Of a DNA stretch of 64,000 bases, positions 11,208 to 55,803 are shown piece by piece (positions within the stretch are counted from its first letter, which is position 1; every line of letters begins with the position of its first letter). This DNA is from Marsupella aquatica (lineage: Eukaryota > Plantae > Marchantiophyta). The notes beneath the pieces are model-generated. The model was not told the origin of the DNA and did not search any database. It saw nothing but the letters and a program-made list of their open reading frames with translations. A program made the translations under genes and the position numbers. The stretch spans positions 15,616,861-15,680,860 of the forward strand of contig OZ316892.1 of the NCBI GenBank assembly GCA_973895155.1, written 5' to 3'.

Positions 11208-11593
11208 GGGGTACACATCATCATTAGAATCTCAGCTGAGGAGTTGACATGGGGCCTTCAAACTTCCGCGCATCTCAGCTGGGCAACCTAGGTTGACTCA
11301 ATCTCGGTTGACCTCGCCGAGAAGGGCGTACGGACCAAAAAAAAATCCCCCAAAAAAAACCAATTTTTAATTTTTTTTTAAAACAAAATCGGAAAATTTT
11401 TCCCATCTCAGCTGGCCTTGCCGAGATAGGTGTCAGTACGGTACGGGCGCCTCATGGCAAAAAAAAATTTGAAAAAAAAAAATCCTTCAAATTTTGAAGA
11501 AATCGCAACTTGGCGGCCTCTCTGAGATGAGGTGGCAGCTGATATCAGGTACACTGATGAAAGTGACTGATAACTGATGAGATTACCTATCTC
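11208..11593. mobile_element. 386-bp non-autonomous MULE-like element with 9-bp TSD CAAGATATT
   Basis: Perfect CAAGATATT at 11199-11207 and 11594-11602; removal restores the transposase frame (...NIL|PQDSH, cf. NVLAQDSH at 49432). The end CTGATGAAAGTGACTGATAACTGATGA matches 39513-39539. Confidence 0.85.
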
Positions 11594-24613: not shown

Positions 24614-24706
24614 TTACTCATATAAATGCGATGGTTAGTACTACGTCCTGAAGTATCCTGCCTAGGTGAATACGCACATGTCTCCCCTCTACGATATGCA
24701 GAGTGG

Positions 24707-24724: not shown

Positions 24725-25633
24725 AAACAAAGGCTATGTCACGTCGTCGGCTTCGGCCTTAACTCAGACTTCAGCTTAGATGGGCACATCCCTCGTAAAT
24801 CTGAGGGTTCGGGCAGGAAGGGAAGCACGTAATGCACCTTATTCTCGTAAACTAGCGCTAAGTGCGCATACTGCTAAATACGGACACCTCCTAGGTATGG
24901 TTTGTGTTCCGCCGCCGGAACGTACCTTAGTTGATAGCAGGATCGACCCCGGCTTAAGGGCTTCTAAGCCTTCGTTCTATCCGCCTTCCATCCGGATTCG
25001 ATGATACAGGTCCTCAACCCGTGCTTGCAACCACTTACCCGCAGGCTGCACCCTGTGCACGTCTCGGGTAGTGCGTTCGGCCTGGCGCTGCCACCCATAT
25101 ACGACAAACCCACACACATACACGCGCACATGCATACAATCTCGATTTACATGAAGGAAAATGATGGGAAAGGATTTTACTACAAAGGGAACATATGCGT
25201 ACACTTAGTTGACCCGACAGCCCCGGAATGAACAGGTTCAAGGCCGAGGGTGCACACTACAACGGAGCCCGGCTCCGCACTCGCCCGGCGAGCTTAGTCC
25301 TACCCCCCCCCTTGGTACTCTTTCATTCCCAGAGGTCGGGACTCCCCGCACATACCGCGGATGTCCAACTCTAAAACTAAAACCCCCCCCCTTGCCTCTA
25401 CCGAGGGGTGCACTAAATACTAAGGGCCGAGGGACGGGGTGTCCTCTCGCCGAAGATTCGCTGACTAAGGTCCTAACTAAGCTAACAGTCAGGCCGAAAA
25501 CGGCTGTGTCTTATTAGAAGATCCTAATCTACGCAGGCTGGACAGCATGGCAGCGCTGCTGTGCCTAAGGCAGGTGCCTGTCCCAAGAGCCTGACTAAGC
25601 TAGTCCTAATCCTAATCTATTCCTACTCCGCCG

Positions 25634-28263: not shown

Positions 28264-28364
28264 TCAGAGGAGATAGTAGTGGCGACTTAGAGCGAACGAG
28301 AGAGCTGGGGTCGAAGCTGGCGCGTGGACTGATGGACTGGTGCACTACAAAGGGTTGGCTCCCC

Positions 28365-28371
28365 TTTTATA
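28365..28371 (-). promoter_or_regulatory. TATA box of the 5' LTR (equivalent at 18273-18279)
   Basis: GGTATAAAAGGGG about 360 bp from the LTR start and about 100 nt upstream of the LTR-ORF ATG. Confidence 0.65.
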
Positions 28372-28789
28372 CCTTGAGGGCTTGTCGATCCCCCGACGTC
28401 TCCTCGACGCCCATAGGCTGAACCGCTCACGCTTGTGGTGTATCGGCCACTCCGCCGGTCTGAGTCAGCGCGTGTGAGTGGCCGCTTCCTTAAGTTCGTT
28501 ATACGGACCCGAGGGAGGGGCCCCTCCACGCTCGTAACCTGGGTGTGCGAATAGTGACCCGCCGCCAGTCCGAACCTGAATTCCCCCTTATTGCCTAATG
28601 ATGTCCTACCCATAATGATTACCTAAATACTGTCGTTATGCTAATAATAGCGGCCTAAGACACTCCTAACGCGCGTACTAAGCGCAGTTAGATCGAATCA
28701 CTCATTAACCGCCGTACTGGCGGCGTCACACTACATTAACACTTAGCTCCAGCATTGCTGACTCCAACGCCAAGCTCCCTTATGGTTCA

Positions 28790-29510
28790 GGCCTGGATAG
28801 GCCATCAGGGGAGGACTTAGCATGGGGAGACTTGTGGGCAATGAGACGTGGCACTAGCGAAGGCAACGAGCCAAGCTGGTGACACACACTAAGGACTTAG
28901 GCTAGCTAAGAGCTGGTTGGGTCAAGGGGAAAAGGGGTTGGGCTCAAGGTTGACTGTCCGGACCCCCGGGAGGACTTTGAGTTATGAGGGCTTGAGTGTG
29001 AGCTCCTCTTAGGCCCAAGGCCAATGGAGTTGACGCCATGGGCAACGGACGCTTGGGGCGTGAGTTATGGCCCGATCCAGGCTTGGCCGATCAGGGATCC
29101 TGAGAGCCTAGGCATGAGCACCGGGTTGGCCCGATCACAACTCCGCTTGCGGACGTCTAACGAGAAAGTTATGGGCGTTGCCAGTTTTGGTGGTGTTGGA
29201 AACACCCAAGGAAATGGGTGTGGGCAAAAGCTACCATGTTAGCCGGCTCAAGAAGTTTGTCAAAGATGATGATCCCAACCGGGATCAGGTCTTGCATCCG
29301 GACGCCATGCTGGTGGAGGACGCGGAGGAGTTTGAAGTGGAGGCAATTCTGGACCACAGTTACAAACGCAAGTTGGGAAGGCAAATCTGAGAGTATTTGG
29401 TGAAGTGGGTTGGCTATGATCAGGCCAAGAGTACTTGGGAACCTGAAGATAATTTGGGTAATGCCTCAGAGATCCTTGGAAGTTATCGTAAGCAAAGCAG
29501 CCTACCGCCA
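28790..29510 (+). mobile_element. Chromovirus Ty3/Gypsy remnant: partial LTR joined by deletion to integrase tail and chromodomain
   Basis: YHVSRLKKF...EEFEVEAILDH...*EYLVKWVGYDQAKSTWEPEDNL..A.EIL at 29178-29490. Left boundary approximate. Confidence 0.8.
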
Positions 29511-30300
29511 TTGTGAACTGGTACATGCAACTGTAGCTACCTTTGTGAGTTGTATCCTAGTTTCACTCCTCTCGGCCTCTTAAGGATAAAGTCAGATTGC
29601 ATTGGTGCTAGAGGTTGTTGGGCGGCCAATTTTCTTTTTGCGAGTGGAAGTTGATGGTACCCGCCTTACATGTGTGGGCGGGCTGGTTCAAACCAAAGGG
29701 GAGTACCCCAAGGGGAGGACAATGGGTCCGACAAGTTTGGAGTTAGCTTACCCGCTTGGACTGGCATCCTACTTGGATTAGTGGGACAGGTTGGAATTTC
29801 CTAAGTCTGGAATTATCACAAGAGAAGCCATGTGTCCCAAATCCACAATGGGAATGTTAGTCCCCAGGCCTTTGGCTTTATACATCAGACGTTAAAGTCT
29901 TGGTACCACTTTATGCCAATAATACCGCACTTTCAGGCTTAGAACTTGGGCGGTACATCAGACGTTAAAGTACCTGCACTTTACGCCAAGAATACCGTTC
30001 CGGACAACATGCGTACCATATAACGATCGTAGAATCCGGAGCGTACATATAACAACTGTACCACAAAGAAGGTACCTATTTGCTAGCGGCCGCCAAGAAG
30101 GTACAGATTCTGCACATGTACAAGGTACATATTTGCCAGCAGCCGCCAAGAAGGTACATGCAAACTCTGGGGATGTAGTATATTCTCCAAGATTCCGTCC
30201 GGCCTTGCCTAAAACATTTCTTCTTCTTCCATCGTGTGGCTTATAATCCCCTCTGCAAAAATGCCTGACTTGAAGGATGAATAAATAGCCTTCCGACTTC

Positions 30301-31169
30301 CTACTCGGCAAGGGTCTTTGACATGCGGTCGCCCTATCTAGCGAGCCTCTTTGTGGTGGATTAGGGACTTCCTTGGTCGTTGAGTGTCATTTACTTTTCA
30401 TCCCAAGTCATTCTCGGCGGGGGTCTCCAAGATTCTGAGATGGATTCTCATAGACTTTTATCTAGAATCCTACTCGGCAATGGTCTCTAACATGCGGTCG
30501 CGCTATCTGGCGAGCCTCTCTGTGGTGGATTAGGGACTTCCTTGGTCGCCGAGTGTCATTTACTTCTCATCCCAAGTCATTCTTGGCGGGGGTCTCCGAG
30601 ATTTTGAGATGGATTCTCATAGACTTTTATCTAGAATCCTACTCGGCGAGGGTCTCTGACATGCGGTTGCGCTATCTGGCCAGCCTCTCTGTGGTGGATT
30701 AGGGACTTCCTCGGTCGCTGAGTGTCATTTACTTTTCATCCCAAGTCATTCTCGGCGGGGGTCTCTGAGATTCTAAGATGGATTCTCATAGACTTTTACC
30801 TAGAATCCTACTGGGCGAGGGTCTTTGACATGCGGTCGCGCTATCTGGCAAGCCTCTTTGTGGTGGATTAGGGACTTCCTCGGTCGCTGAGTGTCATTTA
30901 CTTTTCATCCCAAGTCATTCTTGGTGGGGGTCTTCGAGATTCTAAGATGGATTCTCATAGACTTTTACCTAGAATCCTACTCGGCGAGGGTCTCTAACAT
31001 GCGGTTGCGCTATCTGGCGAGCCTCTCTGTGGTGGATTAGGGACTTCCTTGGTCGTTGAGTGTCATTTACTTTTCATCCCAAGTCATTCTTGGCGGGGGT
31101 CTCCGAGATTCTGAGATGGATTCTCATAGACTTTTACCTAGAATCCTACTCGGCGAGAGTCTCTGACAT
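30301..31169. repeat. Tandem array, 169-bp unit x5 plus partial
   Basis: CTACT(C/G)GG starts at 30301, 30470, 30639, 30808, 30977, 31146. Confidence 0.95.
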
Positions 31170-31379
31170 TTAGTTTCCACCCTAAATTATTCTCGGTGGG
31201 GGTCTCTGAGATGGACTCGGGTCATTTGGGCAACAGTATTTGTACTCGGCGAGCCTCTCTAAGATGGTAGATTTGTACGGACACGCGATCCATACAGAAT
31301 TACATCGTAAAAACATTGAAAAGTACTGTACGATCAGTTTTTGCATGCACTTTTGGGTTCATCCTTGTATTTTGGCGAG

Positions 31380-31986
31380 GGTCTCTGACATCGAATGTGG
31401 GATAGAACCAATTTGGGTCCTTCATTTGAAACGGAATACCCTTAATTTCATCTCGGAGAGGGTCTCTGAGAGACATAGTGTATGTTGTAGCTAACCCTTT
31501 GAAACTGTTAACAGGGTCCACAAGTGGTGTCATCTGGCCAAAGTACGCCCACGACTCCATCTCGGAGAGGGTCTCCGAGAGGCTGGGTCTCATTTGGCGA
31601 CCTTTCTGACCTAATATGCGATTTGGGAGAACTGCTCTCTGGCCACTTGGGGCACACGGCTCCATCTCAGAGAGGGTCTCCGAGCGATTGGGTTGCAATC
31701 TCGCTTCCCTTTCCACCCAAGATGCGATTGACAATTTTTGCCGTCTGGCCGTTCGGGCCACACCACTCCATCTCAGAGATGGTCTCTGACATCGGATGTG
31801 GGATAGAACCAATTTGGGTCCTTCCTTTGAAACGGAATACCCTTAATTTCATCTCGAAGAGGGTCTCTGAGAGACACAGTGTATGTTGTAGCTAACCTTT
31901 GAAACTGTTAACAGGGTCCACAAGTGGTGTCATCTGGCCAAAGTACGCCCACGACTCCATCTCAGAGAGGGTCTCCGAGAGGCTGG
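31380..31986. repeat. ~205-bp direct repeat with 401-bp offset
   Basis: 31380-31586 matches 31781-31986. Confidence 0.9.
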
Positions 31987-33105
31987 CAACCTTTTTGACC
32001 CTAGAGGCATACTTTTCTACCGTGAAGTTTGCTAGAGTGTTGGACTTTTTTCTACTTCTCATATTTTACGCTAAACCCTAAACCCTAAACATAATTGGCC
32101 GCCTTTATTAAGTCTCCTCCAACAAACCCTCCTTGATCTTGTTGACTTGTGCTCTTCCCCCTTCTCTTAACCCCAATTTCCTCTTTTAGTTAAGCCACCC
32201 AAATGATAATGCATGTGGGCAACCATTTCCTCTTTGAGTTGATGCACCGAGATGTTGACACATCTCAGTAGGCCTCGGAATAAAATGACAGCGAGGGTCT
32301 CCTACATTTGGACTCATTTGAGTTGTAGGCCGAAGTCCCTAATTGTACCCTAAATGTACCCTAAACTCTCTCGTACTAATGGTGGTCAGTACTCGCGTTA
32401 GCATTGTGTACTTTCTTGTTTGGCCGTTAACATGTACGTATTGAAGTATAGTTAGGATCTCCCATATCTATTGCGTACTTTAGTGTTGTGCAGTACGGGC
32501 GGTATGTTATTCCTTGAAGTGGATGTCATTCCTTCCTCGTCACTCTTCCACGGTGTGACACCTTAGGTTTGGCGCTCGTCTTTATCACTAATCCCCGGAC
32601 CTTCTCACTCTGCCTCACTCTTTTGCGTCCCTTACTCGTTCGCGCTCTAATCCGCGCTCTTCCTCAATCTTTGCATATTGGTCTGTGCAATCTCTCACTT
32701 CTCCGCGCTCACATCCGCGTTGTTCCTACTCTTCTTTAGTCGTCCCACTCACGGTAAACTCTCCTGTGCAACCCTGTTACCGTGTCTACTAGATTGCGTT
32801 GGTGTTTTGAGGCAGTGAGCGTGTGGTAGCTTCTCCGTGAGCGTTTAGGCAACATTTTTTTGTGAGCATTTGCGACAGTGATTTGCCGTGAACGTTGGTG
32901 ATTCTCTCAGGTTTTTCTCTTGGCTCCCCCTTTTTCTTGATATGTCAAATCCATTTGTAGATGAATCAAATGTGTGAGAGGCTGGACCCCGCGTATCCTT
33001 GAAAACTGGCTCTCTCGGCGGGGCTCGCTAAGATATTGTCAGGTTTATAGGTCGTGCTATTGCCGAGTAATAACTCTTTCATTTCTCATGTAATCTAAGG
33101 TCAAA

Positions 33106-36100
33106 ATGCCAAAGAGGAAAGACTCGACTGGAGCTGGACCTGCCGACAGCCAAACTTCTCAGCGGAGTAAGAAACCACGATCCAAGCTCGGGGGGTTAAC
33201 TAAGTGTATATTTTGGGGTACCACGTGCAATCCTAGCCTAATATAAATAGACCTATTTTATAAAGAAAATATTCCAAGATGTTTTGGGTTTTTTATGGAA
33301 ACCACAGATACACAGCCTGGTCCGCAATTGCTTCTGAGTATTCGGATCAATTGCAATACCATCTGTGCGTCAAATTCTCTCTTTTGAACACTGGGAAGGA
33401 CGGATTCAAGAAGGTTGAGCAAGCAATGCACGCTCTCAACTCATAAGTACTCTCATTCGTGTCTTTTTGCAAAATGTGATTACCCGTTTGTGTAAACCTT
33501 GTGTGCCATCTTGGAGAGCCTCTTTGAAATTGCCGCTATGAGTACTATTTGTCATTTTCAGGATAAGTGCAACTGTCGTGAAGACGTCCTGGTTTAATGA
33601 CGCTGATCGGGTTGCAAAGCTATTGAACACTCCATTGGAGGAGTACAGTTCGCTCATGTCAAAGGAGACAATGGAGGCTTTCATGAAGGCCCAAAATCGA
33701 GGACATGGGAAGACTTGGTACTCGAAGAATATGACAAAAGAAGCCGCTGTGTACATCATGTCTTGGTCAAACATTGAAGCGGGACGAATCAATATCTCCA
33801 AGGAGATGGCACAAGACGCAGCTCGTGGGCACCCGTGGAGTGTGAAGAGAACTGAGGAGGAGACGGAGGCAATGATTATTGTTGCATGCAAGGCCTGGGA
33901 CAACAAGTTCCCCAAGCTTGCGGCCTGCGTGAATCCAGCCAATGGAGACCAGTTCATGCCGGTATGTCGGCAGCTGTATCACAAGTTGTCAAAGGACGCC
34001 AAGCAGGGTGTGATGAATGTACAGGTTGGCTTGGACAGGGTCCGCTTGTTTGCTGGGGCTTGGGTAACTACAGAGTGCAGAGTATAGCTATTGAAAGCTC
34101 ATTTTGGAACGGAGGAGGAGAAGAGTATTTATCACCATCCACGTAGCAATGATGATGCTGCAATTAGATCTTGGTTAGCAGTCTGGTCAATGTGGTGTTA
34201 CATTGACCACGTTGGTTGTGTGATTTTGACCGATTTTGCTGCAAAGGCCTACCAAAGACAGATGTACCATGAGTTTTCCGGGATAGAGGAGGAATTTGCA
34301 GAGCTATACAAAAGGCTTTATCGAGCTTATGTGCAAGAGAAATCACTGAAACTAGGCGGGGAAATTTGGATTGACGGAAAGGCCACAATCCTGTTAAAAG
34401 AATTGTGGAAAAAGTGAACAAAGAGGTGTGTGACAAGATTTCTAATCAATCAGGAGAACATGAATGCATCCGTATTGAAAGAGCTGCCATGGGCACTCAC
34501 ATCTTGGATGGAGCCGAAAGGGAGCCTTAACATGTATCCATGTGATGGCCAAATTCCTAATGGCAGAGTAGTCTGCAATTGGGAACGTCAAAACTGCCCA
34601 TGGTATATGGAATACCGTGACTGGAATACTTTTATCGATGACGCTGAGAAGGAGTGTCCAATGAAGCTGAAGGACCAACAGGAGCCTACAAATTACTACG
34701 ATATTACCAAGCTACGACAATTGATAGACTCTATGCCCCAGGCAATAGCGTTGGAGGCCATAATCCCAATGGACCCAACCTATGATGGGAAAAAGGCCCG
34801 AAAGGAAGGAGGCGAGAAGAAGGTCAACAAGGAACAATCCGCCGAGGCCAGTCAGTCAGATTCTATAAGCACTCCAACAAAGACCCCATCAGGTATTACT
34901 CAATTCCTTTCGAATCAGGTGGTGGCTTGCATTGGAAAAAACCTTGGCTGGGTTGGCGAGGCTCGCCGAGATTAAGTGTCCGATCTAGTCCAGATGTCGG
35001 CGAGGCTCTCCGAGATTAAGTGTCTGGTCCAGTCCAGATGTCGGCGAGGCTCTCCGAGATTAAGTGTCTAGTCCAGTCCAGATGTCGGCGAGGCTCTTTG
35101 AGATTAAGTGTCTGGTCCAGTCCAGATGTCGGCGAGGCTCGCCGAGATGAAGTATTAGTTGAGTAATAAGTTGCTTGCATATAATGAACCCGATCTTGGC
35201 GAGCCTCGCCGAGATGTAGTTGCCATCATGAAGCTCATCAATTTGCATCCTATGCAGGTCATGCAGAGATCCAAATGGAACCTGGTTCTATCAAGAGCAA
35301 GGGTGTAGAGCCGGCTACAAGGCCAGCAATTGAGGACGGTCCAGGGGTTTCATAGGGTCCAAGGCACAAGGATAAACAACCAATAGTTGAGTTGGGTCTA
35401 GACGAGGCTCCACTGCAAGAATTTGACTTGCCTCCGCATGAGGCTCCTGAAGTACAAGATGAATTGGCTGACGAGCAACAAGGTGAGGATGATGTGGGTG
35501 AGCGAGAGGAAGAGGAGCAAGAGGAAGAGGACAAAGGACAATCCAAAGATGAAGGGCGCTTGTCCGATATCTCTCTTGTGCCTTACCGGCCACCATTACT
35601 GTCACGGCAAAAGGAAAAGGCCTTAAAAAGAAAGCAAACTAGGCGACCCAGAGCTCCCAAAGGGAGCCCAAGCCAAGCACGTGACAAGGAATTTCCTCCT
35701 CTTCCTTCCCCCACTGAGTCGCCTCCCCCGCCCGGCACTGGAGAGGTTCCGCCCACAACCATCCAACCTGACCCCACATTGGAAAATGAGGAGGATGAAG
35801 AGGCCCTTGGAGAAGAGGATAATACAGAGCTGGAAGGAGTAAGGCGTCCTTATGCCAATACCGTGTCTTCCTAGAGCAGACATATGTATTTTAGGTGGTC
35901 TCCAAATCTATTTACAACTTTTTTTGATGCGGCTAAAGAAGGTACCGAACCCCCTGTAGTTAGTAAATTGATCTCATGGTGCAGAAAGCTATTGTGGGAA
36001 GGTTTGCGTCAAAATGCCTGGAGAAAAGGGGGGAAGCGAGTGAAGACTGGTGCAGATTTAATTCTAATACATATGGGAACAGACACGCGAATGGTCGAGG

Positions 36101-36870
36101 GTAAGTCCACCCCGTTGTGGAATTCATTTCGGGAGGATGACTTGAACCGGGTTCAGGAGTTTGCTCGAGATGTCCTTGATTCCGAAGGACTGTTTGCCAT
36201 CGTGCACAGTGGTTTGCTTCGGCACTCAACTTGCATTTATGATGCATTAGTTTACGAGAATACCAACTGGGGGTTGAAAGAAAGCTTCTTTATCTGGAAC
36301 GACACACCCACCTACGAAGGTAGGACTGGGAAGCGAGTAATTCCCATCAATTACCTACTTCTTCATTTATTTTTTATTCCAATGACTTACTATCCTAAAC
36401 TGAGGAAGTCTGACCTCTAATTGACCTCTAATATCTCAAGCTAGACCTGTGGGGGTTTCAATCTGCTGTGGAGATATGCCCAAAGGACGATGTGGCACCA
36501 ATTAGTGCAGAGCTCGATATGAAGAGTAGGAATGGGCTAACAAACTATACATCCAAGAAGAATCAGGTTAACGATCCTTTTGCGGGCACATTGTTGCCAG
36601 CAACGCTCCAATGTATCATTGAATATACAACACACCTTGGGGCAACTATCCTCACTTTCAACGCACAGTTTGGGGCAATATTCAAGGCGGGTGAAAATTG
36701 CGGGCGGATGGTGTTTGGGACTGAATCCTATCCTCACTTCAGAACTTGTGCGCAAGACCAACTGGCACAACTGGTTGGAGTGATCTCCCCGGAGGAGGAA
36801 GAGGTGGTCCGTTCAAAAGCCAATCCAGAAAAGCACAAGAAGAAAAAGCCGGCAGTACTCCCAACAACAT
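33106..36870 (+). pseudogene. Multi-exon gene: ParB/Srx-like domain, helical region, acidic linker, beta-class N6A/N4C methyltransferase-like fold
   Basis: KMFWVFYGNHRYTAW (33276-33320). ORFs 33578/34091/34430 and 35392/35884 are in frame across single stops, and intron 34893-35257 keeps phase. ADLILIHMG...W...FARDVL..EG.F.I.H (from 36052) and LQCIIEYTTHLGATILTFNAQFGAIFKAGENCGRMVFGTE (36606-36726). Confidence 0.7.
34955..35148. repeat. Intronic tandem array, 44-bp unit x4 plus partial
   Basis: GGCGAGGCTC starts at 34955, 34999, 35043, 35087, 35131. Confidence 0.95.
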
Positions 36871-37095
36871 GTAAGTTTTCTGGCGTTTGATGTTGTTCAT
36901 TTCATATTTGCTTGCTCGTCGCAATGGTTGACAATAGAGGGATACAAGTCAGCGGCCTCGCCGATATGTATGCATGTCGGCTGACCTCGCTGACATTCAT
37001 AGTGTCTGGCCTCCTCTACAAGCGAGGGCAAGTCCTAACTTGAGATGCATGTTGGCGGACCTCGCCAAGATTCATTCCTCTACATGCAACTCAAG

Positions 37096-37893
37096 AAGAG
37101 TCATCTTGGCGGGCCTCTCCAAGATCCGTCTGAGGAAGAGTGATCTCGGCTGGCCTCTCCAAGATCCGTCTCAGGAAGAGTTAATCTCGACTAGCCTCTC
37201 TGAGATCCGTCTCAGGAATAGTCATCTCGGCTGGCCTCTCCGAGATCCGTCTCAAGAAGAGTGATCTTGGCTGGCCTATCCAAGATCCGTCTCAGGAAGA
37301 GTCAATCTCGGCTGGCCTCTCTGAGATCCGTCTCAGGAATAGTCATCTCGGTTGGCCCCTCCGAGATCCGTCTCAGGAAGAGTGATCTTGGCTGGCCTAT
37401 CCAAGATCCATCTCAGGAAGAGTCAATCTCGGTTGGCCTCTCTGAGATCCGTCTCAGGAATAGTCATCTCGGCTAGCCTCTCCCAGATCCGTCTCAGGAA
37501 GAGTGATCTTGGCTGGCCTCTCCAAGATCCGTCTTAGGAAGAGTCAATCTCGGCTGGCCTCTTTGAGATCCGTCTCAGGAAGAGTCAATCTTGGCTGGCC
37601 TCTTTGAGATCCGTCTCAGGAACAGTCATCTCGGCTGGCCTCTCCAAGATCCGTCTCAGGATGAGTCAATCTCGGCTAGCCTCTTTGAGATCCGTCTCAA
37701 GAACAGTCATCTCGGCTAGCCTCTCTGAGATCCATCTCAGGAAGTCATCTCGGCTGGCGTCTCCAAGATCTGTCTCAGGAATAGTCAATCTCGGCTGGCC
37801 TCTCTGAGATCCGTCTCAGGAATAGTCATCTTGGCTGGCCTCTCCGAGATCTGTCTTAGGAAGAGTGATCTCGGCTGGCCTCTCTGAGATCCG
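37096..37893. repeat. Intronic tandem array of ~20 units of 40/41 bp with a 121-bp higher-order period in its first half
   Basis: Unit AA(G/T)AGT(C/G)(A)ATCTCGGCTGGCCTCT(C)CGAGATCCGTCTCAGG; lies between donor 36871 and acceptor 37994. Confidence 0.95.
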
Positions 37894-38385
37894 TCGATCC
37901 ATGTCGACTACCTTCCCCGACAGATGCCTTCTTGTTTACGTCTATTTTGGCGCAATACATTATTTGATTGGATTTAAGTATAACTTAGTAGCAGTTCCCG
38001 ACAGGACTACCGAGTCAGCTACAGCGGAATGGGACAGCCAGGACAGACGGCTTGTCAAGCTCGCGTGGGAGGAAGCTTCGGCATATTTCTCGCCGGAGAA
38101 GTTAACCCTTCCGTGCTACCCTATTGATACCTATCATGAAGAAATAGTGCCTCGCTGTGTAAAAGAGAGAAAAAGGAAAACTCTCAAATTTGTTGATGAT
38201 AGGGCAAAAGAAGCTCAATCAGATGAGAGTAGCTCGGTAGGAAGTGACAATCTCCAAACTCACCATGTAAGTATAAGATTATCAAGCTCCAGTTCCGAAG
38301 AGTAATGTTTGAATGAATTTACCTTCATTGCAGCTCAGGAGAGACCTGAGAAACCAGTGAATGAGGGCTGACTCCCCGAGCAGGA

Positions 38386-39111
38386 GTGAAAGAGGTGGGG
38401 CTTGCAAACAAAGGAGTGCCCGCACAACAACAACCATCCAAATTTTTGGCGATAGTGAAGAAGGCATTGGACCCCAAGGCGGACCAAAAAGAGGTCATAG
38501 TGACAATCGAGGATGTGCACTTGACGAGGGCACATTTAAAATGCTTTCGGCCAAAAAAATGGATCACTTGCGACGTCATCAATGCTTACATTGCTTTACT
38601 GGAACAAAGAGCACAAACCCTTCATAAACCCAAGGCCATGTTATTGCCAACACATTTTTACCAAGTGATGACAACTCCGGAATATAACTTCAACGCAGCG
38701 TTGGCATATTGGCGGGGCATTCAAATGTGGGAGCACGAGTACGTTTTAATCCCCGTCTACCGGCCAAAATACTGGGTACTAGTTGTGGTTGATACTGCCT
38801 TGCGGCAACTGCATTTACTTGATCCGCTTGTGCCCAAAGCACAGGATGGCACAGAAGTGTTCAAAGTAGCTCAGTTTCTTTCGGACCTCTCCATCTTGCG
38901 GGGTCGTACCTTGTTATGTCCATTAGAATGGCCACGCATTTACCGAGATAACATTCCAGGTCAAGGGGATGATTACAATTGTGGTGGATATATCATTATC
39001 TACATGGAGCATATTTTTGGAGGCGGCGTACTGAACTTTGACCCTGCACTTATAGACATCATGCGGCAAAAGATTGTTGTGGACCTTGTCTGCCAGACAA
39101 TTACCCTATAG
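38386..39111 (+). CDS. Ulp1/SENP-like (C48) SUMO protease domain, catalytic His apparently changed to Tyr
   Basis: LKCF.P..WITCDVINAYI.LL, THFYQ, YVLIPV....YWVLVVVD, LLDPL, Q..DYNCG.Y. TAC at 38770-72 stands where CAC (HW motif) is expected. Confidence 0.88.
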   Translation: MKEVGLANKGVPAQQQPSKFLAIVKKALDPKADQKEVIVTIEDVHLTRAHLKCFRPKKWITCDVINAYIALLEQRAQTLHKPKAMLLPTHFYQVMTTPEYNFNAALAYWRGIQMWEHEYVLIPVYRPKYWVLVVVDTALRQLHLLDPLVPKAQDGTEVFKVAQFLSDLSILRGRTLLCPLEWPRIYRDNIPGQGDDYNCGGYIIIYMEHIFGGGVLNFDPALIDIMRQKIVVDLVCQTITL

Positions 39112-39552
39112 AGAGGATGGGAGATGGAGACGCAGCCTAGTGGAATTTAGTTCAGAAAATTGAGATAGACAACATCGTTGTAAAGTTCGGTACAAAGCTT
39201 AATAAAAAGTCAGCGAGGGTCCAAACATTCTTAATGTGGCTCCTATTTGATATGCTATGTTGTACACGTTGCTGGGTATGTTTTCATCTTGGCAAGCTCA
39301 GCCGAGATGGAACAACACTCCAAGGATATCTCAGAGAGGGCGCCAAGATGGTTAGAAAGGGCACCAAGATGGTCAGAGAGGCAGCCGACATTACTAATTG
39401 TCCGAACCAAAACAATGTCGGAGTGGACGCCGACATAGGGTTTGATTGTGGGTGTGAATTAAGTCCATGTCGGCGGCGTCGCTGAGTTTCGGGCACAGAC
39501 TGATATTAGTGACTGATGAAAGTCACTGATAACTGATGAAGTTGTGTACCTC

Positions 39553-42500
39553 CTTTCTGGTCAACAAGTGGTGACGGTACTAGAATGCCTGAATTGATAT
39601 CTTCTCACACAAGGATTTCTAGATTGTCAAATTGATAACTTCTCAATCAAATTTAGATAATTACTCATGGAAAGGAAACATTCCATTTCGACTACTGGAA
39701 CAGCAGGAGTTCAATGCTACCTAGAATCCATATGAGTAATTCAAATCAAAATCCAACTTCAAAGTATGATGGTAAAATTTCTAAGTATTAACTTCTCAAC
39801 AAGAGGAGTCTGTAGTTCTACTCACAACAGGTCAAGGCTCAACAGGAGCACCTGAGGAGGAGCTTCTATGCTTCCAACAGAAATTGAGAACTAAAGGAAA
39901 ATGGATCTGTGTTCCTCCTAACATGCACAAAGGAAGGATCCCAAAAGTCACAAAGTGTCATTTCCGGTTTTCGTGGAAGAAAAATTAACTGTCAATCAAA
40001 ATTCAGAAATGAGAACAAAGGAAAATCCGGAAATGGATGTAAGACAAAATCTGGATTTTGATTTCCGGTCCTACTTACTAAATCCGGATTTAGATCCTAG
40101 TCGGATCCGGAAATTCTAACTAACTAACTAAAAGCTACTAATCTACTGAGCATCATCAACTACATCTACTCTAACTGACTCATGTGTAAGATCAATTGGA
40201 CTAGCAGGTTTTAGAGGAGGAGATATAACTAAACTCGCAGTTGCCTCCAAGTCCTTCAAATCAAAAGGTGTTCCATGTGTTGGACTAATAGTTGAAGGTG
40301 ACACTGACGGAAAATGAAACTCAACCTTCTCAAATCCGGGTGGGGTGCCTCCTGCTTCATTTTGATCGCGCATCACCGGATATGTTCCGGATTCCGAAAT
40401 CCGGATTCTGGCAGGGGTCAACATGGACTTCGCATCCGAAATCACTATCTCCATCTGATCAAACGCTCCTGTGATCTTCTTGGCAAAGCGGTTATTGCAC
40501 TCAATAACCTTGACAAGGGTGCCTGGGTTGGCTGTCGCTAAATACTTATCTATCAGGTTGGCTTCCAACAAGCCAAGGGCTGGTACATGAATAGCCTCCT
40601 GAACACTGGTAACTACAGCATTCAGTTATTTCTGGATTTTCAGGTGTTCCTCCAACTTCTTCTGTGCAACATCCAACTGGTCCACCAAAGAGTCAATCTT
40701 CTATCTGTCCTTGAAGGCCTGATCCTCCAAGTCCCAGATCCGCTTCTTAGCCTGACTCTTAATCACCATGTCCAGAGTGGAAACGATGACAATTGGGCTG
40801 CAGTTGAGCATCTCAGCAACCGTCCCAACTAGATCCTCAAGTTGCTTCATTTTTCCGGTCGCACTTTCCATGAAAGTCCGGACATGCTCCAACTCTGCTG
40901 ATGCCGTCCACTTCAAACTAGGGATCACGCCCGGAAGACTTCCTCTACTTTCCGGTCTCCGGATAGGTTTCGGATCTTCAACAGGATCCAGTTCCGGACT
41001 CTGCACAAATCTCTTCTGCGTCCTGAGAGGTCGCACTTCCAGAACCGGTTCTTCTTCTGATTCAGTCCCCTCAGACGGCTGTCGATCCGGATCTCCGAGT
41101 TGAGCCAACATGGCTTGATTCTCATACTCTTCCGCTACTTCATCTGTAAGAATTTGGTCCATCACGTAAATATTGGCTAGATAGCAAGAAAGGGATGTGG
41201 GGGTCTTCAAATGAAGATTTCGGACCTGGTTGGCTATAACTTCCTCCAAAACCTTGGCCCAGGAAATCTTCTTCTCCCCTATGTAAGAAGCAGCAATCGT
41301 ATTTCCAATCCGAATTGTAACTCGTCAAGGCTTGGCAGGGGAAAGAAGTGGTAGCAAAAAGGACAGAATGTCGTAAAACTCCTCATTACAGCACTGGGAC
41401 ACCTTCCAACCGTCCTTCGGATCCACTTCACCATCAAAATAGTTATCCGCAAATTCATTCTTAGAGGTCAGGAAACCTTCTCCCTTCAAAGGCACATCCA
41501 AAAGCAAAGAGATAACTGCCGCGGTCCACTTTTTCGGTTTGGCTTTGATCGAATCCGGAAATTCCAAAGCAAGGGTCGTGCGCTTTCGGACCTCCTTCAC
41601 GAATATTGCACTCTGGTATCCCCATGGCAACTCCATCAACTTTGCACAACCCATGGTCTCAAGGTTCTTTTGTAAACGGTCCTTCCGTGCCAAATCCGTG
41701 GGAATCTTCGGACGCAGTGGCTTTTCATTCACAATCACTGTCCGCTCCTTGGTCGTCCGCTTCGGTAGCGTCCGGATTCCGGATTTGTCCGGGGCAAAAT
41801 CCGGGTCCTTTCTCTTCACCATATTTAGGAGATGGAGAGGAAGAATCCAAATTAAACTCCTTTCACAAAATTCCGGAAATATCAAATCTGGAAATTGAAA
41901 TCAAATCTTCACTTCCCCACTCAATCGAACGATCACCCACTTCCCCCGTAACCAGTTCCTCACGACTAATGCCTCGAATCGGCAGCCTGGTTCGGCTCTA
42001 AGCTCTCCTGTGATTCCTTGCGAAGGATTTCTACAGCAGTTTGGTGGTGTGAGGAATGCTCGGTCTAGCGTGGTCTTAAGAACTCGGTCACCAACTTCCG
42101 GTCTCCGGTCGAACGTCAGACTTATGGTTTTAATATTCATTCTCCCACGCCTTCTCGCATGGCTCAACGGTGTCGTTACTTAAGAGATCCAAAAAAAGGT
42201 GCTATCTGGATATTTCCGGATGCGATATTGCAAAGTAGTTTGTTATGGTCTTTTCCGGTCAAAGTATACTCCGTTAACCACTAAAAGTTGAAAATTTTCA
42301 AATTTTTTTGTACTTTTTAATTTCATTATTTATAACTATGGTATCACATAACTCCCTCCCCAACCGGTGCAGTGCCCTCGCAAACCATCAAGAGGTGGAG
42401 TGATATTTCTTAACCCGAGATCCATTAACTCGAGTTAATAAAACTTTGCCTTGTAAATCCTCCAACTGTAATGAACCATTAGAAAATATCTCCCTTACCT

Positions 42501-42775
42501 TGTAAGGTCCAAGCCATCTGGTATGAAGCTTCCCTGGAAATAACATGTAACGATTATCAAAAAGCATAACCAAATCACCTGGTACAATCTTCACTTCTTT
42601 AAGCTTAGAATCATACCACTTTGCACGTCCCAATTGTTGTTTCTCGGTCTCAATCAAAGCATAATGGCGATCTTCTTCTAACTTCTCCAAATTTTGTAAC
42701 CTGATAGTCTGACTTGACTCCTCATCCAACCGAGTGGTGTCAGAAATCCGGTAAGTGGGTACTTCAAATTCCACA
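39553..42775 (-). mobile_element. 3' part of a second non-chromovirus Gypsy: integrase tail (42775-42388), PPT, and putative 3' LTR from 42348
   Basis: GDLVMLFDNRYMLFPGKLHTRWLGPY closely matches the integrase tail of the full element; GGGGAGGGAGTTA|TGTGATAC lies 40 nt after the stop. Confidence 0.85.
40143..41822 (-). pseudogene. Accessory ORF (~560 codons, frameshifted) downstream of the PPT of the second Gypsy
   Basis: MVKRKDP...LETMGCAKLMELPW...DPKDGW.V..C....L.FLLPLLSPAKP, followed by 41249-40701 and 40571-40143 with coiled-coil character. Confidence 0.75.
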
Positions 42776-44139
42776 CACAAAATATAGATGAGAGCGTCCT
42801 GTGGCATCTTGTGTGTGAACCATGACCCCTTTCTCATCTTTTTTTGGATTGCCTCAAACTTTACCATGTTTGCGCTATCAATGAGTGGTTTGTAGTGATC
42901 CAGATCACGCAACAAAATTTGGGAAATTCAAGAAGGCTCAACGACTGCTTGTCCAAGCCTGGATACAATGAGAGGTAATTAGCAGCGCCGGGCACAAAGA
43001 TCAGGGAATTGCCACTCTATGGTCCAACATATTTAGCCCAAAATCAATGAGAGCTATACAAGTAGTTAATGAATGTAACTTACTGGTTCACGGTGTGCAT
43101 CGTCGCCTTGAGCTCAACCAGAGAACCTCTATCGCCATTGAAATTGACGCAAATCACACAAGGATGATACTTCAAGTTGTTCGGATTCTCCCTGGTGACA
43201 ACTGACCAGGAGTACAATCACTGATTTTTGTCAAAGACACAAAACATTTTGTATTTTAGAATGTGGAATGTTGGATTTGCATCACACTCTTCCTTGAACT
43301 TCTCATTCTCTACGACTCAGATTGGATCCCAAGAGTCCTGGATCTCGCTTGTGCAGATTTGAGGAACCCCATCGGCATTGGCAGGCTGAACATAGAAAGG
43401 CATTCCAATGCGTGAGCTCGGGGGGGTCACTATATGGAGGGCCATACATCGCATGCGACGTTTTAGGGTTTGACCCCCCCTAACTTATAAGTGAAAAATA
43501 TTTTTTTGCGAAGCCCTTTCTTTCTTTAAATTTTGTCATTTTTATTAAAAAACCCCTAAAAACTTTAAAGAAAGTATTTTTTGCAATTAAATAGGCCTAT
43601 GTGTTCTTTAAAGTTGACCAGTCAATAAAACATGCCCTATGTGTTCTTCCACCAAACTTTGGAAGTCTTTCGCCACACCCATTTAAATGGGCCTATACTT
43701 TGTCACACGTGATGTGCCATTTCCGTGGAAGTGACCCCCCCCCCCCCGAGTGCGCAAGTTGTACCCTGTGACACAAAATGATCCTTTCAACTTGTCAATT
43801 GACGCGCTCTCTTTTTGCAATGTTTGAACAACCTCCATGGGGAGAAATCTACAAAGAGGAATTTGAGGAGGCTCCTTATCGAATCCTCAGAATTCCTTTC
43901 CAAACAATAACACATGCTTCAAGATTACCTCATCCATGGATAACCCTACGTTGCTGACTTCACCCCATGGCACCCTCCTTAGGGTCCATTCTTTCTCTTC
44001 TCAACCTCGAGAAGGGCTGCGTGGATTTAGCTTTGGAATTTGTTGAGGACGCAGTCGATCGGGTGACGCGACGGGTGTAGATTGAGCCAATGAACAAAGA
44101 CTGAGAGGACTTGGAATGACCACCATCAGCCTTCCCCAT
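42776..44139 (-). pseudogene. ParB/Srx-like accessory gene, copy A (3'-truncated, MITE-interrupted)
   Basis: SQSLFIGSIYTRRVTRS; FYVQP; SWDPI*V.ENEKF..EC.ANP; KMFCVFDKNQ*LYSW; DLDHYK..IDSAN..KF....KGSWFT.KMPQDAL.YILC, all aligning with 52471-53560. Confidence 0.8.
43417..43750. mobile_element. MITE with ~40-bp imperfect TIRs CTCGGGGGGGTCACT and 8-bp TSD
   Basis: Flanks TGCGTGAG / TGCGCAAG (both derivable from TGCGCGAG by CpG decay); removal restores GYNSRIGMPFYVQP. Confidence 0.85.
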
Positions 44140-46463
44140 TCTTGTATCACCCAACCAAAAGATGCTAAAGAGCGGGGCTTGACCTTCCAACACTGTCGTA
44201 CAAGACGTGCAGTTCTTGGGACAATCACGCCTCAAATTTACGAGAGCAATAAAGGACACACGCACACACTTGGGAAACACGTACAGTCCAAGGTATGTGC
44301 GCTTAAGTCGACTAAATTATCTACAAAGAGGGATCCCAACCTTGTATTAAGACACCGATACCTTCGACACAGCCAGCGGATTACAACGGTCAAGATGCTT
44401 GAACCATGACAGATGGCATTTCATGATTGGCCGTTCATGGCAAACAAAAGGAGAACGGTTCCGTGAACATCAATCTACTGTAATGTTATTGTTGGCAAGT
44501 GACAGTTGGGAGCAATACAGTGTTAATAATTCTCTCTAGCGCTAGTACAAAACATACACTCAACATACAACCAATTTTGACCTATTTTGACTAGGGTTCG
44601 GCACTGGTATGGAATCCATACATCTGCATTTCCAATTTTGTGATAGTGTTGAACAATAACTTATAATAGCGCTCGGCGCTAGTATCAAGAGAAATCATTA
44701 AATCAGACACTAAACATAGGTAACACATCTGCATTGCCAAATTATGTGACGGAATTGTTCAATAGCTTATAATAGCGCCTGGCGTTATCAAATTTGTCCA
44801 GAAATGGCTCAAAGTTTGTTCGCATAGACATAAAATTAACAACTGAAGTATTTGAGTTTAGGGCCCATCTCTTAATAGCACCGAGTGCTATCAAAATCAA
44901 TTTTAAGATTACACAGAATACAAAACTTTAAACAATTCTTTGTTTCTCAAAATAAGGCCGAGCGTTGTTGCAATTATCAACAAACAACAAGTGTTTCCAA
45001 CAATTTTAAATAATTGTTATTGTTCACGTTCACAATTACAATACATACACGAGAGTACAAACGGAAAGCAACACCGTTGCTGCCCTGGGTTCCAGCTGAA
45101 AAATGAAAAACTATTGGTCTTTTTGATTAAAAACACGCAAACTTCGATATCAAAAGGAACGGACAAATACCAAAACTTTGATATCAAAAGGAATACAATT
45201 AGGAACATTTTGGAAACTGTAGTAATCCGATGTGAGGTGAGCTACTGGCAATCATTTCCTATTGGAAAATACATATGGAAACATGTACCATCTAACTTGC
45301 TACATCCTCCAAGTGGCCCAAAACTCAAACTAAACGATGTGGTGAAGGGCAGTCAGTCATCCCACCAACTCGGCTTGTACACGTTAGAGTCGTCGTTGGA
45401 GTTGCTTGACCCATACCAAGAAAATCCTTGCCTGCTCGGAGATGAGTCCCCGCTCGAAGAAGGATCACTCTCCGTGGAGGATTCCACATCGGAGAGATCC
45501 CTACATGGAGTGGCTTGTCTCGGAGGTTTGACTGCAGTAGGGGCAATATATACTCCCCGGGGGAACAGAAGACGTGCCACTCCAATTTGGAGGATTGGAT
45601 CCTTCTCCACGGCCCGTAGGTGGCGTTGCTTTAGTCTTTGAGATTGTCTTGCCCTTGGCCGAGATCAGAACCATGGTCCTCTGTGTAGTCGGCCACGGTG
45701 GTAGGTTGTTCAACACGGGGGTCTCACGCTCACTATCACTTACAACAACGGCCTCCTCCTTACCCTTTCCTCGTGGAGGTGCCATTGAAACTGATCAGGC
45801 GATGGTAGGACTGAATAAAAGGACCAAAAGCTAACAAGAACCACTACTCACCACGCCGCTGACGTGCAACAAGAACTTGATGCCGTCTCTGCCCAGAACA
45901 CAAGTCCTAAAATGAGACTTGGGAGCGAGAACTTGTGGACACTGAAGAATTATAGGAGAATGAAGAGATATGAGAAGAATGAGGAGATATGAGGAGAATG
46001 AGGAGATATGAAGAGGTAGTCCCGCACTTTCAGTTTGTGTACTGACTTTCAAAGATGCTTCCTTCATCAATCTTTTGAACCGCAACGGTTTGGATACGTA
46101 TAGATATACAAAATAACTTCACGCGTGTGAACTTGATGACACGTACTGTACCGCGTCGGCTCTATATGACTTGGATACCTTTTTATTAATTGTGAAATAG
46201 GTAGCAACAAGCGCTATTATTATTGACCATCGCACTCCTCACCCAAGAGTGTCATCATATTGCTTCCAGAGGTAGCGTCAGGCGCTATTAACTTCTAACC
46301 CAAACCCAACTGTTGTTAAGACGACAAAATGTCATTGATGCAGTGCGTCCAAATCTATAACGAATCCTCTATAGTGAGAATGGAACGTTTACTTATTTTC
46401 CTGATCTCATGATAAACATATTTCATTTGGAGCGGGGCAAGTCCATTATCCCGTCTTGAAGCC

Positions 46464-52470: not shown

Positions 52471-54660
52471 ATGGACCCTGCCTTGTCCTCCTCTCAATGC
52501 TTTAGTGGAAACGGACAGAAAGAGGTCGTTCCTTTGCAAAAATCTGAGTGTTTTTTTTCAGGATCTGTGTATGGTCGTCGAGTGACCAGGTCCATTACTT
52601 CGCAAGCTCTTGAAACACAACCGCTATTACATTTCCAAAGAGCATGAGAGGGGAGATGGATGATCTTGATTTGTATGCTGTGGGGGACTACGGGGAAACG
52701 TTGCTTACTGTGTATGATGTGATCTCCAAACACATCATGTCCTTTGTAAAATATTTTTGAGGACACGACAAGGATCCCCCAAGGATTCCAATGTGTTGAT
52801 TACTTCACATGGAAGTAGTGCAAACATTGCAGAAGGGAAAACCTTTGATCAAGAAGTTGAAGGACTCTTTTCATAGCACGGGTTACAATTCTAAGATCAA
52901 CATGTTGTTTTACGTCCAACCAATAGATTTGAATGGAGATTCTAGATTTGTACGCCAGAGATTCGTGCTTCATGGGATCCAATTTTGGTTGTAAAGAATG
53001 AAAAGTTTGGGGCAGAATGTGCTGCCAATCCTGACTTACCATCTTGCAAGATAAGATGTTTTCAGTATTTGATGGTAACCATTGATTGTACGCATGGTCC
53101 ATCGTAACAAAGGAAAATCCTGATGATGTGAAATATCATCCTCACATACTCTGCACAATATTCAAGGAAGAAAAGGGGTCATTAATTGAGATTGAGGCAA
53201 CAATGCAAATTGTCAACCAATAAGTGTCTCTCTCAACATATGTATCTCTCTTCAATTACATTGTCTCTCCATTATAATTCCCATCCACTTAATTCCAATC
53301 TTTGGCAAAGTTTGACTAGCATTGGGTGCTACTGACTCATTTATTTTTCTTCAGGCTTGGGCAGGCAGTGTAACCCTCTTGGATACTTGACGCAGGCCGA
53401 ATTAACAGAATTCTATCAAATGATCTAGATTACTACAAGTCAAGCATCGATAGTGCCAATTTCAAGAAGTTTGGCCAGGTCATGCAGAAGACTCAGAAGG
53501 GATCGTGGTATACAAAGAAAATGCCTCAGGAAGCGCTTTTGTACATCTTGTGTGAAAATAAGATCAAGTCTTATTCTCGACAGTTTAAGATGGTTCTAGA
53601 GTTTGTTGCCGCTCAGGGTACACCTTGGTCTCTGGGAGAGATTTCAAAAAGGCACGTTGCAATGATGAAGGAGGCAACCAATGATTGGGCAATAAAGGTT
53701 TCAAAAATAACTCCTTTGTTATGCCCCGCCTTTGAGGATTTATGCGTACGTGCGCCAAGATGTACCCCCTGACAGAGAAGAATAAACGAGAGAAGAAACC
53801 CGATGCGGTTGTTTGTACAATGGATCAAGCAAGATTGTTTACAATCATGTCTATCCTCAACCCCAAGCTGAGGAGTATTCTTCTTGTTGCCCATTGTACA
53901 CCAGAGCTGAGGAAATAGTTCTTTCATCCACAAAATGTTAGTGACGATCCCGTGAGGCAATGGTGCCATACCTGGCAAACTTGGAACAATGTGGAGGGAA
54001 TCGCTATTGGTATGCTGCACACCTCCCTCTGGCAGGTCAATGATCAATATAGTCCCCACCAATTGATTGAATGTAGGAGTGGGATTGTGACTCATTTGAC
54101 TCGCTTATTGAAATAATCTTGAATGATTTTAAGAAATTTGGAGACACAGTGAAAGGCAAGTATTTGAATACAATGTGGCCTTCCAAGTATCCCAATAAGG
54201 TTGACTACATGCTGAAGAATCAAAAGAGGGCCAAACAATATCTCTATCGTTTCTTCATGCACATGGAGATTGTGAAGCCAAATTACTTTTGGGCTTACCG
54301 AGTTGCTTTCCATAAGTGGATCATAGTTGCCGAACGAGACATTCTGGCTAAGGTGAATTCAATGTATCCTGCTAAAGGGTGTCTTCCGCTAAGAAAACTG
54401 TCGGAATGGGAGAGAATTCATTGTCCGTGGTATTTGGATACTAACAGTTGGGACTCTCCGTTTGACAACACTGAGAAAGATGCATTCAATAAGCTCTCCA
54501 AATCTCAAGTCCCCCCCCCCCCAATTTGTGTCTGACATGAAGCAGGGAATCAAAGGCGATGTGAACCAATCAACGGCCGAATTGCAAATGGTATGCAAAA
54601 CTATGGTTGTTCATGTTGATCAAAGTCACAAACCCAGAGCCAAGGCAAAAACCAAAGGCA
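52471..54660 (+). pseudogene. ParB/Srx-like accessory gene, copy B (3'-truncated)
   Basis: KMFSVFDGNH*LYAW at 53053-53097 (TGA from CGA gives DGNHR); intron 53220-53354; WERIHCPWY matches WERQNCPWY of copy C. Confidence 0.82.
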
Positions 54661-54669
54661 TCACGAAAC

Positions 54670-55803
54670 AATTAGTGTCACTAACAATTAGTGTCACACA
54701 CACTAATTAGAGGTATCCCTTGATTTTCAGCCAACTGACACTATTTACCGTCACCTTCAATTTTGAAAAAAAAAAATTTAAAAATATTGATAATTAGAGA
54801 TAACAATATAATTGGTGGTAACCCTAAACTAGACTCACTCCAAAGTTATCCAGACTTTCAATGACATCTCTGTGTGCCTATGTTTTTAGAAGATTTCCTT
54901 TGTATTTTAGCTGGTCAGTCTTTGTGAAAGGAGAGTAATAGAGCGATAACATGGCGGGATATGGATCGCCCATCATAGTTGGATTTGCTAGAGTAAGGGA
55001 AAGAGAATCAAGATTATGTCAACATGTCACTGGTAATTAATCTGCGTCTCCTTTGGCTTTTCCTTGCGGCAAGACCCACAAAATGTTTTTAAGTGTATCG
55101 AAAGAGTCTGTTCTTTTCTTGAAGCAACTTGTGAAATGTTCGTTCTGTACTTTACGTCTCATTATGATCAACTTACACCTGAGCTTCAAAATATCATAGT
55201 ATAGTATCGAGTGAATTTTGAAGGGAGTCGAGTTGACCTTGATATTCATGCTACTGTTGAAGTGGCTCCTGAAGTTGGTGAACCAGGTGAAGAGCCAGCT
55301 CAACCCACTTCTCTTGGGGCTGTATGCTGTCTTGCAAGGATGAGACACAGGGGACAGGTTGAAAGAGAGTGAACAGGATATTAGTTTGTAGCTTATGTGA
55401 GACAACATATGTTATTCATAATTGATAGAAGTGAATCAAACATATCTTGCTTGCTCAATGTGGTTGAGTACCTCAAACTATAATTTTGTGCTATGTGAAA
55501 AGAGTTATAAATGTCTGAAGTTTGCTCAATGTTCAGTAGTATATGGAAAGAGTTATAAGTTTCTGAAGTTTGCTCAGTAGTAAATTTTGTAAAGTGTAAT
55601 CAAATATTGTGCACATTTTTCATTTTTTTAAAAGCAAATTTTGACTATAGTCTATTCTATTTTTTAACTTAAGTGTACATGTGACACTATTTGACTTGTG
55701 ACCACAATTAGTGTCATACCATATTAGTGTCACACACCCTAATTACCGTCACTTACCTCAAATATAACCTCACAGTAATTAGAGTGTGTGAGACTAAATA
55801 CTG
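54670..55803. mobile_element. Partial non-autonomous DNA transposon with a Tc1/pogo-like end (...ATACTG|TA) and repeated TTAGTGTCAC motifs
   Basis: Motif clusters at 54671-54710 and 55708-55800; decayed small ORF near 54950-55372; left end missing. Confidence 0.45.

Follow-up and report, generated by a model that had tools for sequence, protein, structure and literature searches.

A transposon accessory gene with ParB-like, methylase-like and Ulp1 parts, and its candidate recognition palindrome, in the liverwort Marsupella aquatica

The 64,000-nucleotide stretch analysed here (hereafter the window; Marsupella aquatica, GenBank assembly GCA_973895155.1, contig OZ316892.1, positions 15,616,861 to 15,680,860 of the forward strand) is intron-bearing, transposon-rich DNA and contains what is likely a Mutator-type, multi-copy plant DNA transposon. 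Its accessory gene joins a ParB/Srx-like domain, a helical domain, an acidic linker, a methylase-like domain and a Ulp1 SUMO protease. We propose, at slightly less than even odds (a probability of roughly 0.45), that the encoded protein recognises its own element at 23-bp palindromes and either counters silencing or opens the element for transposition, without methylating it. As a dimer, the protein would contact the palindrome through its ParB-like and helical parts; its methylase domain would serve as a non-catalytic DNA or modified-base binder or as a scaffold, and Ulp1, the only predicted enzyme, would remove SUMO from nearby silencing or chromatin proteins. In this way the element would stay accessible for expression and for transposition. 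Protein and palindrome would be matched within each subfamily, much as VANC proteins are matched to their motifs. Binding, dimerisation, cytidine triphosphate (CTP) use and deSUMOylation by the accessory protein are all steps that we infer.

The palindrome arrays are one line of evidence for this proposal. The 23-bp palindrome, ATCTCGGCGAG-N-CTCGCCGAGAT, has 47 matches at up to 6 mismatches, compared with 0-2 in each of 10 Markov controls; 45 of the 47 lie in the element and none in exons, which make up 45% of the element. Most sites are found in the introns of the accessory gene and upstream of it, kilobases from the element end. The palindrome is the only part common to repeat units of 169, ~105, 44 and 40 bp, and across different repeat arrays its core is 74% identical, whereas the flanks are only 26% identical (275 pairs, 26 picked sites). 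The sister elements carry a different, 15-bp palindrome, TAGCGCC-N-GGCGCTA (15 matches at up to 2 mismatches, against 0 in 20 controls), which occurs as dispersed single sites around the sister transposases and genes, at 9533-13944 and 44667-52088; the 23-bp motif is absent from the sister elements, and the 15-bp motif is absent from the focal one. When 241 million metagenome records were searched with the 23-bp pattern alone, 30 loci were obtained, two of which (L179 and L191) match genes of the window element, while 26 have a G+C content of 54-73% and are probably chance matches. L179 encodes the methylase domain of the family (hidden Markov model, HMM, E 8.6e-69; 41-49% identity; degenerate motifs) with two palindromes in the next intron, and L191 encodes the SWIM end of a transposase (tblastx E ~1e-21) with two palindromes behind it. 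On this comparison of sequences, the palindrome is conserved in distant relatives. A further locus, L175, has at least four related palindromes around two short open reading frames (ORFs), one of which contains what we take to be an F-box-like stretch and is possibly a third cargo gene. The original prediction had suggested that the element might bind or de-silence its own DNA; this part of it gains support from the arrays, which it had not mentioned, and the idea itself has already been published for transposons of algae.

The first half of the ParB-like domain is missing from the window copy but is present in two sister genes, at 52.8 kb (+) and 43.9 kb (-), which the remaining GNHR piece matches by tblastn at E 1.3e-7 and 4e-7. 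The G-x-x-R motif that follows a hydrophobic strand reads YGNHR in the window, and DGNH and DKNQ in the sisters, where a stop occupies the Arg position. The order of motifs in the sisters (IP-RFL-MEVV, L--SF--TGY, FYVQP, an insertion, FDGNH, HP-V and a final Asn) is that of the ParB/Srx fold. Compared with 31 bacterial ParB domains using context pseudocounts, the domain obtained a score reached by 1 of 60 shuffles; with a diverse 15-member subset, 90 columns were collinear, GNHR fell at the box II position, the terminal Asn was aligned, and the score was reached by none of 60 and none of 48 shuffles. Against 24 DGQHR segments, 2 of 200 shuffles reached the score, which is near that of ParB itself against DGQHR. 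With a ParB HMM, the GNHR piece was the top-scoring part of the window, though with an E of 2.1. The homolog search with this piece found none. Scans of metagenomes, viral contigs and prokaryote genomes by protein pattern found no relative, and a three-row ParB-like profile run on 301 genomes of one bacterial phylum gave chance-level matches only (11 at E<=0.1, the best being an unrelated 714-residue protein). We consider it fairly probable that a ParB/Srx fold is present; the assignment is moderately supported and plausible rather than established. For the earlier ParB/Srx claim there are collinear motifs and weak profile matches, and no Pfam or fold match was obtained. A natural prokaryotic counterpart is seen in locus L114, a bacterial open frame of 437 residues in which a ParB domain (LDGVHRWSAY) is joined to a DPPY methylase.

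A number of results weigh against the proposal. In the first run against the 31 ParB domains, 38 of 200 shuffles scored as high as the domain itself, and the 15-member subset was picked after that result; HH probabilities for the domain are 6% or less throughout, Pfam, PHROG, NCBIfam and PDB gave no match to it, and its predicted fold is poor, with a predicted local distance difference test score (pLDDT) of 41. A DNA-binding fold was not identified in the helical part. The 23-bp consensus was derived by eye from the window, and L179, L191 and L175 all belong to a single data set. C>T and G>A changes are frequent in the palindromes, which were therefore not protected from decay in the window copy. 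Neither a transposase of the focal element nor its left end was found in the 64-kb window. Finally, it is equally possible that the palindrome serves as a transposase site, a view that its retention by a gene-less element fits well.

This last possibility is the main rival: the palindromes would be sites of the Mutator-like transposase, and the accessory protein would act otherwise or be recruited indirectly. The 386-bp element without genes retains its ends and two palindromes, in L191 the palindromes lie behind a transposase, and the accessible text of a preprint (10.64898/2026.08.24.746577) describes the AtMu1 transposase alone as activating cognate copies. However, a position in introns and upstream of the accessory gene, far from the end, is the layout of VANC sites, and in red algae, according to the portion of the source at hand, ParB-like genes borne by elements with an unrelated kind of transposase also have palindrome arrays beside them. 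We regard this alternative as unlikely. It is less probable still that a ParB-type, nucleotide-gated clamp at the palindromes helps to pair or organise the element ends during transposition, with silencing not being its main concern. The alignment of GNHR with box II and of the terminal Asn would suit such a clamp, as would the sites kept by the gene-less element; yet the ParB fold is unproven, the Ulp1 and methylase domains point to chromatin, and phage ParB partners of DNA-modifying enzymes are described, in the part of PMC13229309 available, as able to function with mutated residues for nucleoside triphosphates. A broader form of our own proposal holds that land-plant Mutator-like transposons carry a ParB/parS-like self-recognition system, in which a nucleotide-gated clamp on a subfamily-specific palindrome in introns and ends would bring in an amino-methylase that has lost catalysis and acts as a reader, together with an active SUMO protease, to undo host silencing locally, protein and palindrome co-evolving between subfamilies; taken as a whole, it is rather doubtful.

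The methylase-like domain was confirmed by way of its homologs. Its first half matched 27 proteins among 1.84 billion, of which 19 are true homologs and eight (P0008, P0016, P0017, P0019, P0022, P0024, P0026 and P0029) were dropped as repeat-driven false matches; homologs with a named source come solely from two liverworts, Riccia sorocarpa and Calypogeia fissa. At least seven annotated family members belong to R. sorocarpa (P0018, P0021, P0023, P0027, P0028, P0030 and P0031). The Riccia homologs P0027 (27.6 bits, over a cut-off of 26.7) and P0028 (E=3e-5) match PF01555, these two also match phrog_67 across both methylase halves (E=8.3e-9), and all four PDB matches of one Riccia protein are adenine methyltransferases. 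The window clade, without Riccia, scored 39.2 against six bacterial enzymes, a value reached by none of 60 shuffles, in a comparison whose query included 12 codons in a frame later rejected; the six are those of 96 bacterial and phage methylase loci that passed a motif filter, and they were found via the Riccia homologs. Motif IV precedes motif I, DLILIHMGT aligning with QLIIADPPY and TFNAQFG with DPTAGSG. The C-terminal half is 49% identical to P0025 and matches NF010253 at E=0.04; its 5' exon edge is decayed, and a frameshift near 36480 was rejected because a single frame fits the homologs from 36432 onward. The domain is still conserved, with 63% identity to P0005, and four of the five variants listed in it are silent. 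The window segments alone match neither N6_N4_Mtase (PF01555) nor ParB profiles; the earlier call of a beta-order amino-methyltransferase domain holds by way of homologs. The structure predicted for P0025 is poor (predicted template modelling score 0.38, no Foldseek match at E<=0.001, best VIA Z of 6.0, unrelated), and the ESM Atlas places the methylase half in unnamed clusters at 0.91.

The catalytic signature [DNS]PP[YFW] is found in none of the 19 homologs, nor in the window or L179. At the motif IV position, the window has HMGT, the 12 close homologs mostly have x-[ML]-G-x, and the seven Riccia proteins have DPPT-, DMPT- or DIPT-like forms, while motif I reads [FL]NAQ[FY]G in all three close-clade sequences that span it, in place of the D..F.G.G loop that binds S-adenosylmethionine (SAM). 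The aromatic residue, Asp and prolines of motif IV and the Gly of motif I are needed for activity. Since the catalytic motif is missing throughout, the domain probably does not methylate, and the suggestion that the element marks its own DNA by methylation is not supported, given the family-wide loss of motif IV. Nonetheless, the reading of the original prediction, in which the domain is a working N4C/N6A methyltransferase, unusual in its motifs, and marks the element's DNA, deserves to be weighed. The beta-order domain is confirmed, the Riccia relatives keep the motif IV Asp in five of seven cases (DPPT, DMPT, DIPT, DLPS), and D..G.G of motif I in both proteins that cover it, the acidic residue after strand 2 is retained, and the Ectocarpus protein discussed below is predicted to be active in the accessible part of its report. 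Against this, the base-stacking aromatic of motif IV is absent from all 19 homologs, the window and L179, and the window clade is also without the Asp and the two prolines of motif IV and without the first Gly in motif I. We hold this reading to be quite improbable. In two Riccia members more of the SAM loop survives, and one has DPPT; they are the best candidates for residual activity. That the methylase was kept after loss of catalysis argues that methylation is not the core function.

The plus-strand spliced frame (exons in the table below) comprises 1002 codons up to where the methylase exon ends and 1102 up to 38368, with four stops and compatible phases, in agreement with the earlier claim of one frame of more than 1000 codons; its other landmarks, namely YGNHRYTAW, the helical exon, the acidic linker, DLILIHMGT first and ILTFNAQFG...GRMVFGTE last, are likewise all present. 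The 36871-37994 intron does keep phase, but the frame does not run directly into Ulp1, being interrupted before it by one more intron (38267-38338) and, at 38364, by a frameshift of 1 bp. The Ulp1 exon matches PF02902 (E=3.6e-11; 43.7 bits over a threshold of 20.7). Of what we take to be its His-Asp-Cys triad, Asp and Cys are present in the window, whereas His is replaced by Tyr at 38770; this codon is His in all depth of the three public runs spanning it, so that the catalytic His exists in other copies and the predicted protease domain stands. An extra base restoring the frame at 38364 is found in 3590 of 3902 contig depth in run X1 and 1541 of 3064 in X3. For the helical domain, Pfam, PHROG and NCBIfam searches matched no family; four homologs (42-76% identity) are open at those of its stop positions that they span, and P0001-P0003 are open at the stop positions of window exon 3. 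Since stops and a frameshift occur here, while homologs are open and contigs of public runs mostly keep the frame, the window copy is a pseudogene of a conserved gene. The splice donor after the GNHR exon has decayed to AT from GT, and bin depth at 33188-33276 is 47368 compared with ~5000, with loose contig ends at 33279. Added up across the element, contig depth runs to thousands, as against ~100-300 for single flanking contigs, which is not a copy number but suggests that many close copies of the element exist.

A single fused protein through Ulp1 is what splice phase and homologs point to; a search for a full-length homolog of 792-2260 residues found none, which is weak evidence. It is very improbable that the segments represent distinct genes, or cargo captured neutrally, with the repeats as by-products of tandem amplification: although L179 (reverse strand) has the methylase exons, then the palindrome-bearing intron, then the helical exon in phase, the reverse of the window order, and one sister copy has no detectable methylase remnant, the splice phases are compatible through to Ulp1, the annotated Calypogeia protein CAM6126174 unites the helical domain, linker and methylase half, and the palindrome alone is common to different repeat units and recurs in distant relatives. 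The reversed order in L179 suggests exon shuffling or an ancestral ParB-methylase adjacency.

A 9-bp target duplication is typical of Mutator transposons. As the 386-bp relative has such a duplication and SWIM transposases stand beside the sister genes, the element is likely Mutator-like, as the original prediction had it. Profile searches for a transposase gave a SWIM match only (E=0.045), with no match to the MULE DDE transposase profile or to PDB; members of this SWIM-ended family at 46400-50600 (+), 13600-9700 (-) and 51700-51050 (-) have a cysteine-rich N-terminal part. The focal element ends on the right at 39553, and its left part is interrupted by retrotransposon DNA. The transposase at 13.6-9.7 kb was rejected as that of the focal element because it carries the other palindrome and because the two 23-bp sites there are those of the inserted mini-element. 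An inverted repeat (8762-9092 and 28885-29186) was rejected as the transposon ends because its right arm enters a chromodomain retrotransposon fragment. In the second sister gene (52700..54700), no methylase remnant was detected.

Table 1. Features of the focal element and its relatives in the window. The plus-strand exons from 33277 to 39111 form the spliced frame.
Feature	Position	Strand	Basis
Gene-less 386-bp relative, 9-bp target duplication, 2 palindromes, inside a transposase remnant	11208..11593	.	
Upstream region with repeat units of 169 bp and ~105 bp; 23-bp palindrome present 15 times	30299..33034	.	
Probable first coding exon (MPKRK..., basic), 3' edge lost	33106..33187	+	sequence
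Remnant of a high-copy insertion, approximate edges, in place of the ParB-like domain's N-terminal half	33188..33276	.	contig depth
ParB/Srx-like domain, C-terminal half (FYGNHRYTAW ... AMHALN)	33277..33442	+	tblastn to sisters
Helical domain, no known family, 2 stops in the window copy	33562..34892	+	4 homologs
Intron, 44-bp tandem repeats, 6 copies of the 23-bp palindrome	34893..35257	+	
Acidic linker plus methylase-like domain, N-terminal half; HMGT at the motif IV position; 2 stops	35258..36336	+	
Methylase-like domain, C-terminal half, motif I position FNAQFG, 5' edge uncertain	~36441..36870	+	
Intron, 40/41-bp tandem repeats, 22 copies of the 23-bp palindrome	36871..37994	+	
Linker exon, in phase	37995..38266	+	
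Ulp1/C48 SUMO-protease exon; frameshift 38364 and His-to-Tyr 38770, both in the window copy only	38339..39111	+	
Right end of the element, one palindrome, terminus common to the 386-bp relative	39270..39553	.	28-bp match, 96%
Sister ParB-like/helical gene, head-to-head with a SWIM transposase, cut by a retrotransposon	42750..45790	-	
SWIM transposase facing the first sister gene	~46.4-50.6 kb	+	
Transposase remnant facing the second sister gene	51.7-51.0 kb	-	
Second sister ParB-like/helical gene, head-to-head with a transposase remnant	52700..54700	+	

Several neighbouring features complete the window. A young Ty3/Gypsy-type retrotransposon with long terminal repeats (LTRs) occupies 14633-28730; its 4-kb LTRs are 97% identical and contain long ORFs without a Pfam match, its target duplication is 5 bp, and a related LTR lies at 62.6-63.9 kb. 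The end of a retrotransposon integrase, a chromodomain, is found at 29200-29520 (PF00385, E=1.6e-15), the adjoining DNA being inverted-repeated at 8762-9092. A small, very high-copy insertion with G-run/C-run ends (43427-43760) splits the sister ParB-like exon and is similar to the remnant at 33188-33276. At 61347-62163 lies an element of ~820 bp with long inverted arms, resembling a miniature inverted-repeat transposable element. An intact, intronless, hydrophobic ORF of 364 codons (58360-59454, -), plant-like membrane protein without a Pfam match, is probably a host gene.

ParB-methylase transposon genes have already been described in brown and red algae. In Ectocarpus, as far as the accessible text of the report goes (PMC12477816), Sola1-1_Ec32 carries an accessory gene on the strand opposite the transposase for a 1104-residue protein with ParB-like and N4C/N6A methyltransferase domains, proposed to bind and modify its own element. 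The window protein resembles it in being a transposon accessory protein of ~1100 residues with ParB-like and amino-methyltransferase domains, a likeness drawn from the description. In contrast, Sola1-1_Ec32 belongs to a brown alga, has a Sola transposase, a 4-bp target duplication and a methylase predicted to be active, and the accessible text mentions no Ulp1 or palindrome array; a search of five supplements found no ParB text. In the red alga Bostrychia, the available part of a preprint (10.1101/2025.02.11.637652) reports the Plavaka genes PAG2 and PAG3, with a PF01555 methylase and a ParB-like domain as transposon cargo; inverted-repeat tandem arrays adjoin the ParB-like PAG3, and such cargo also occurs on Chondrus Mutator elements. 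There, by the same description, separate genes encode a methylase-SET fusion and a fusion of ParB with a 2-oxoglutarate (2OG) oxygenase, whereas the window has one frame with Ulp1 and a methylase whose motif is lost. In the literature searched, which excluded subscription journals and Repbase, there is no report of a ParB-methylase transposon gene of land plants, or of one with Ulp1 or a dead methylase, and the accessible text of PMC4738411 describes no land-plant case.

Within the beta class of PF01555 enzymes (M.RsrI, M1.HpyAVI/DpnA, CcrM, MboIIA, MpDN4MT1 and bdelloid N4CMT), motif IV precedes motif I as it does in the window. However, DN4MT1 has TSPPY and N4CMT has SPPY, and the window family is without such a motif; the link to Marchantia DN4MT1 that had been envisaged was not found, none of the 19 homologs having [DNS]PP[YFW]. 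With ParB-parS and the DGQHR/DndB-like ParB/Srx proteins, the system shares a collinear motif order and palindromic sites in many copies; unlike ParB-parS, it has an insertion of ~45 residues before the GNHR strand, low profile probability (<=6%) and a 23-bp site with a 1-bp centre, and no ParA partner is seen in the window element. VANDALs are Mutator-like transposons, and their VANB protein is Ulp1-like. VANC of VANDAL elements acts, as the accessible text of PMC5735166 states, on short motifs that are specific to each subfamily and have been amplified into tandem repeats within introns and upstream, and the window palindrome has the same layout. VANC differs, according to that text, in its DUF1985/DUF287 domains, none of which was found in the window protein, and in its 9-bp non-palindromic motifs. 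If binding by the accessory protein is true, it would constitute a new sequence-specific anti-silencing or targeting module. The family supplies a 23-bp candidate site, a sister palindrome as a natural specificity control and a gene-less mini-element, which make binding directly testable. The ParB-methylase idea proposed for algae is extended by this family to land plants, including two named liverworts.

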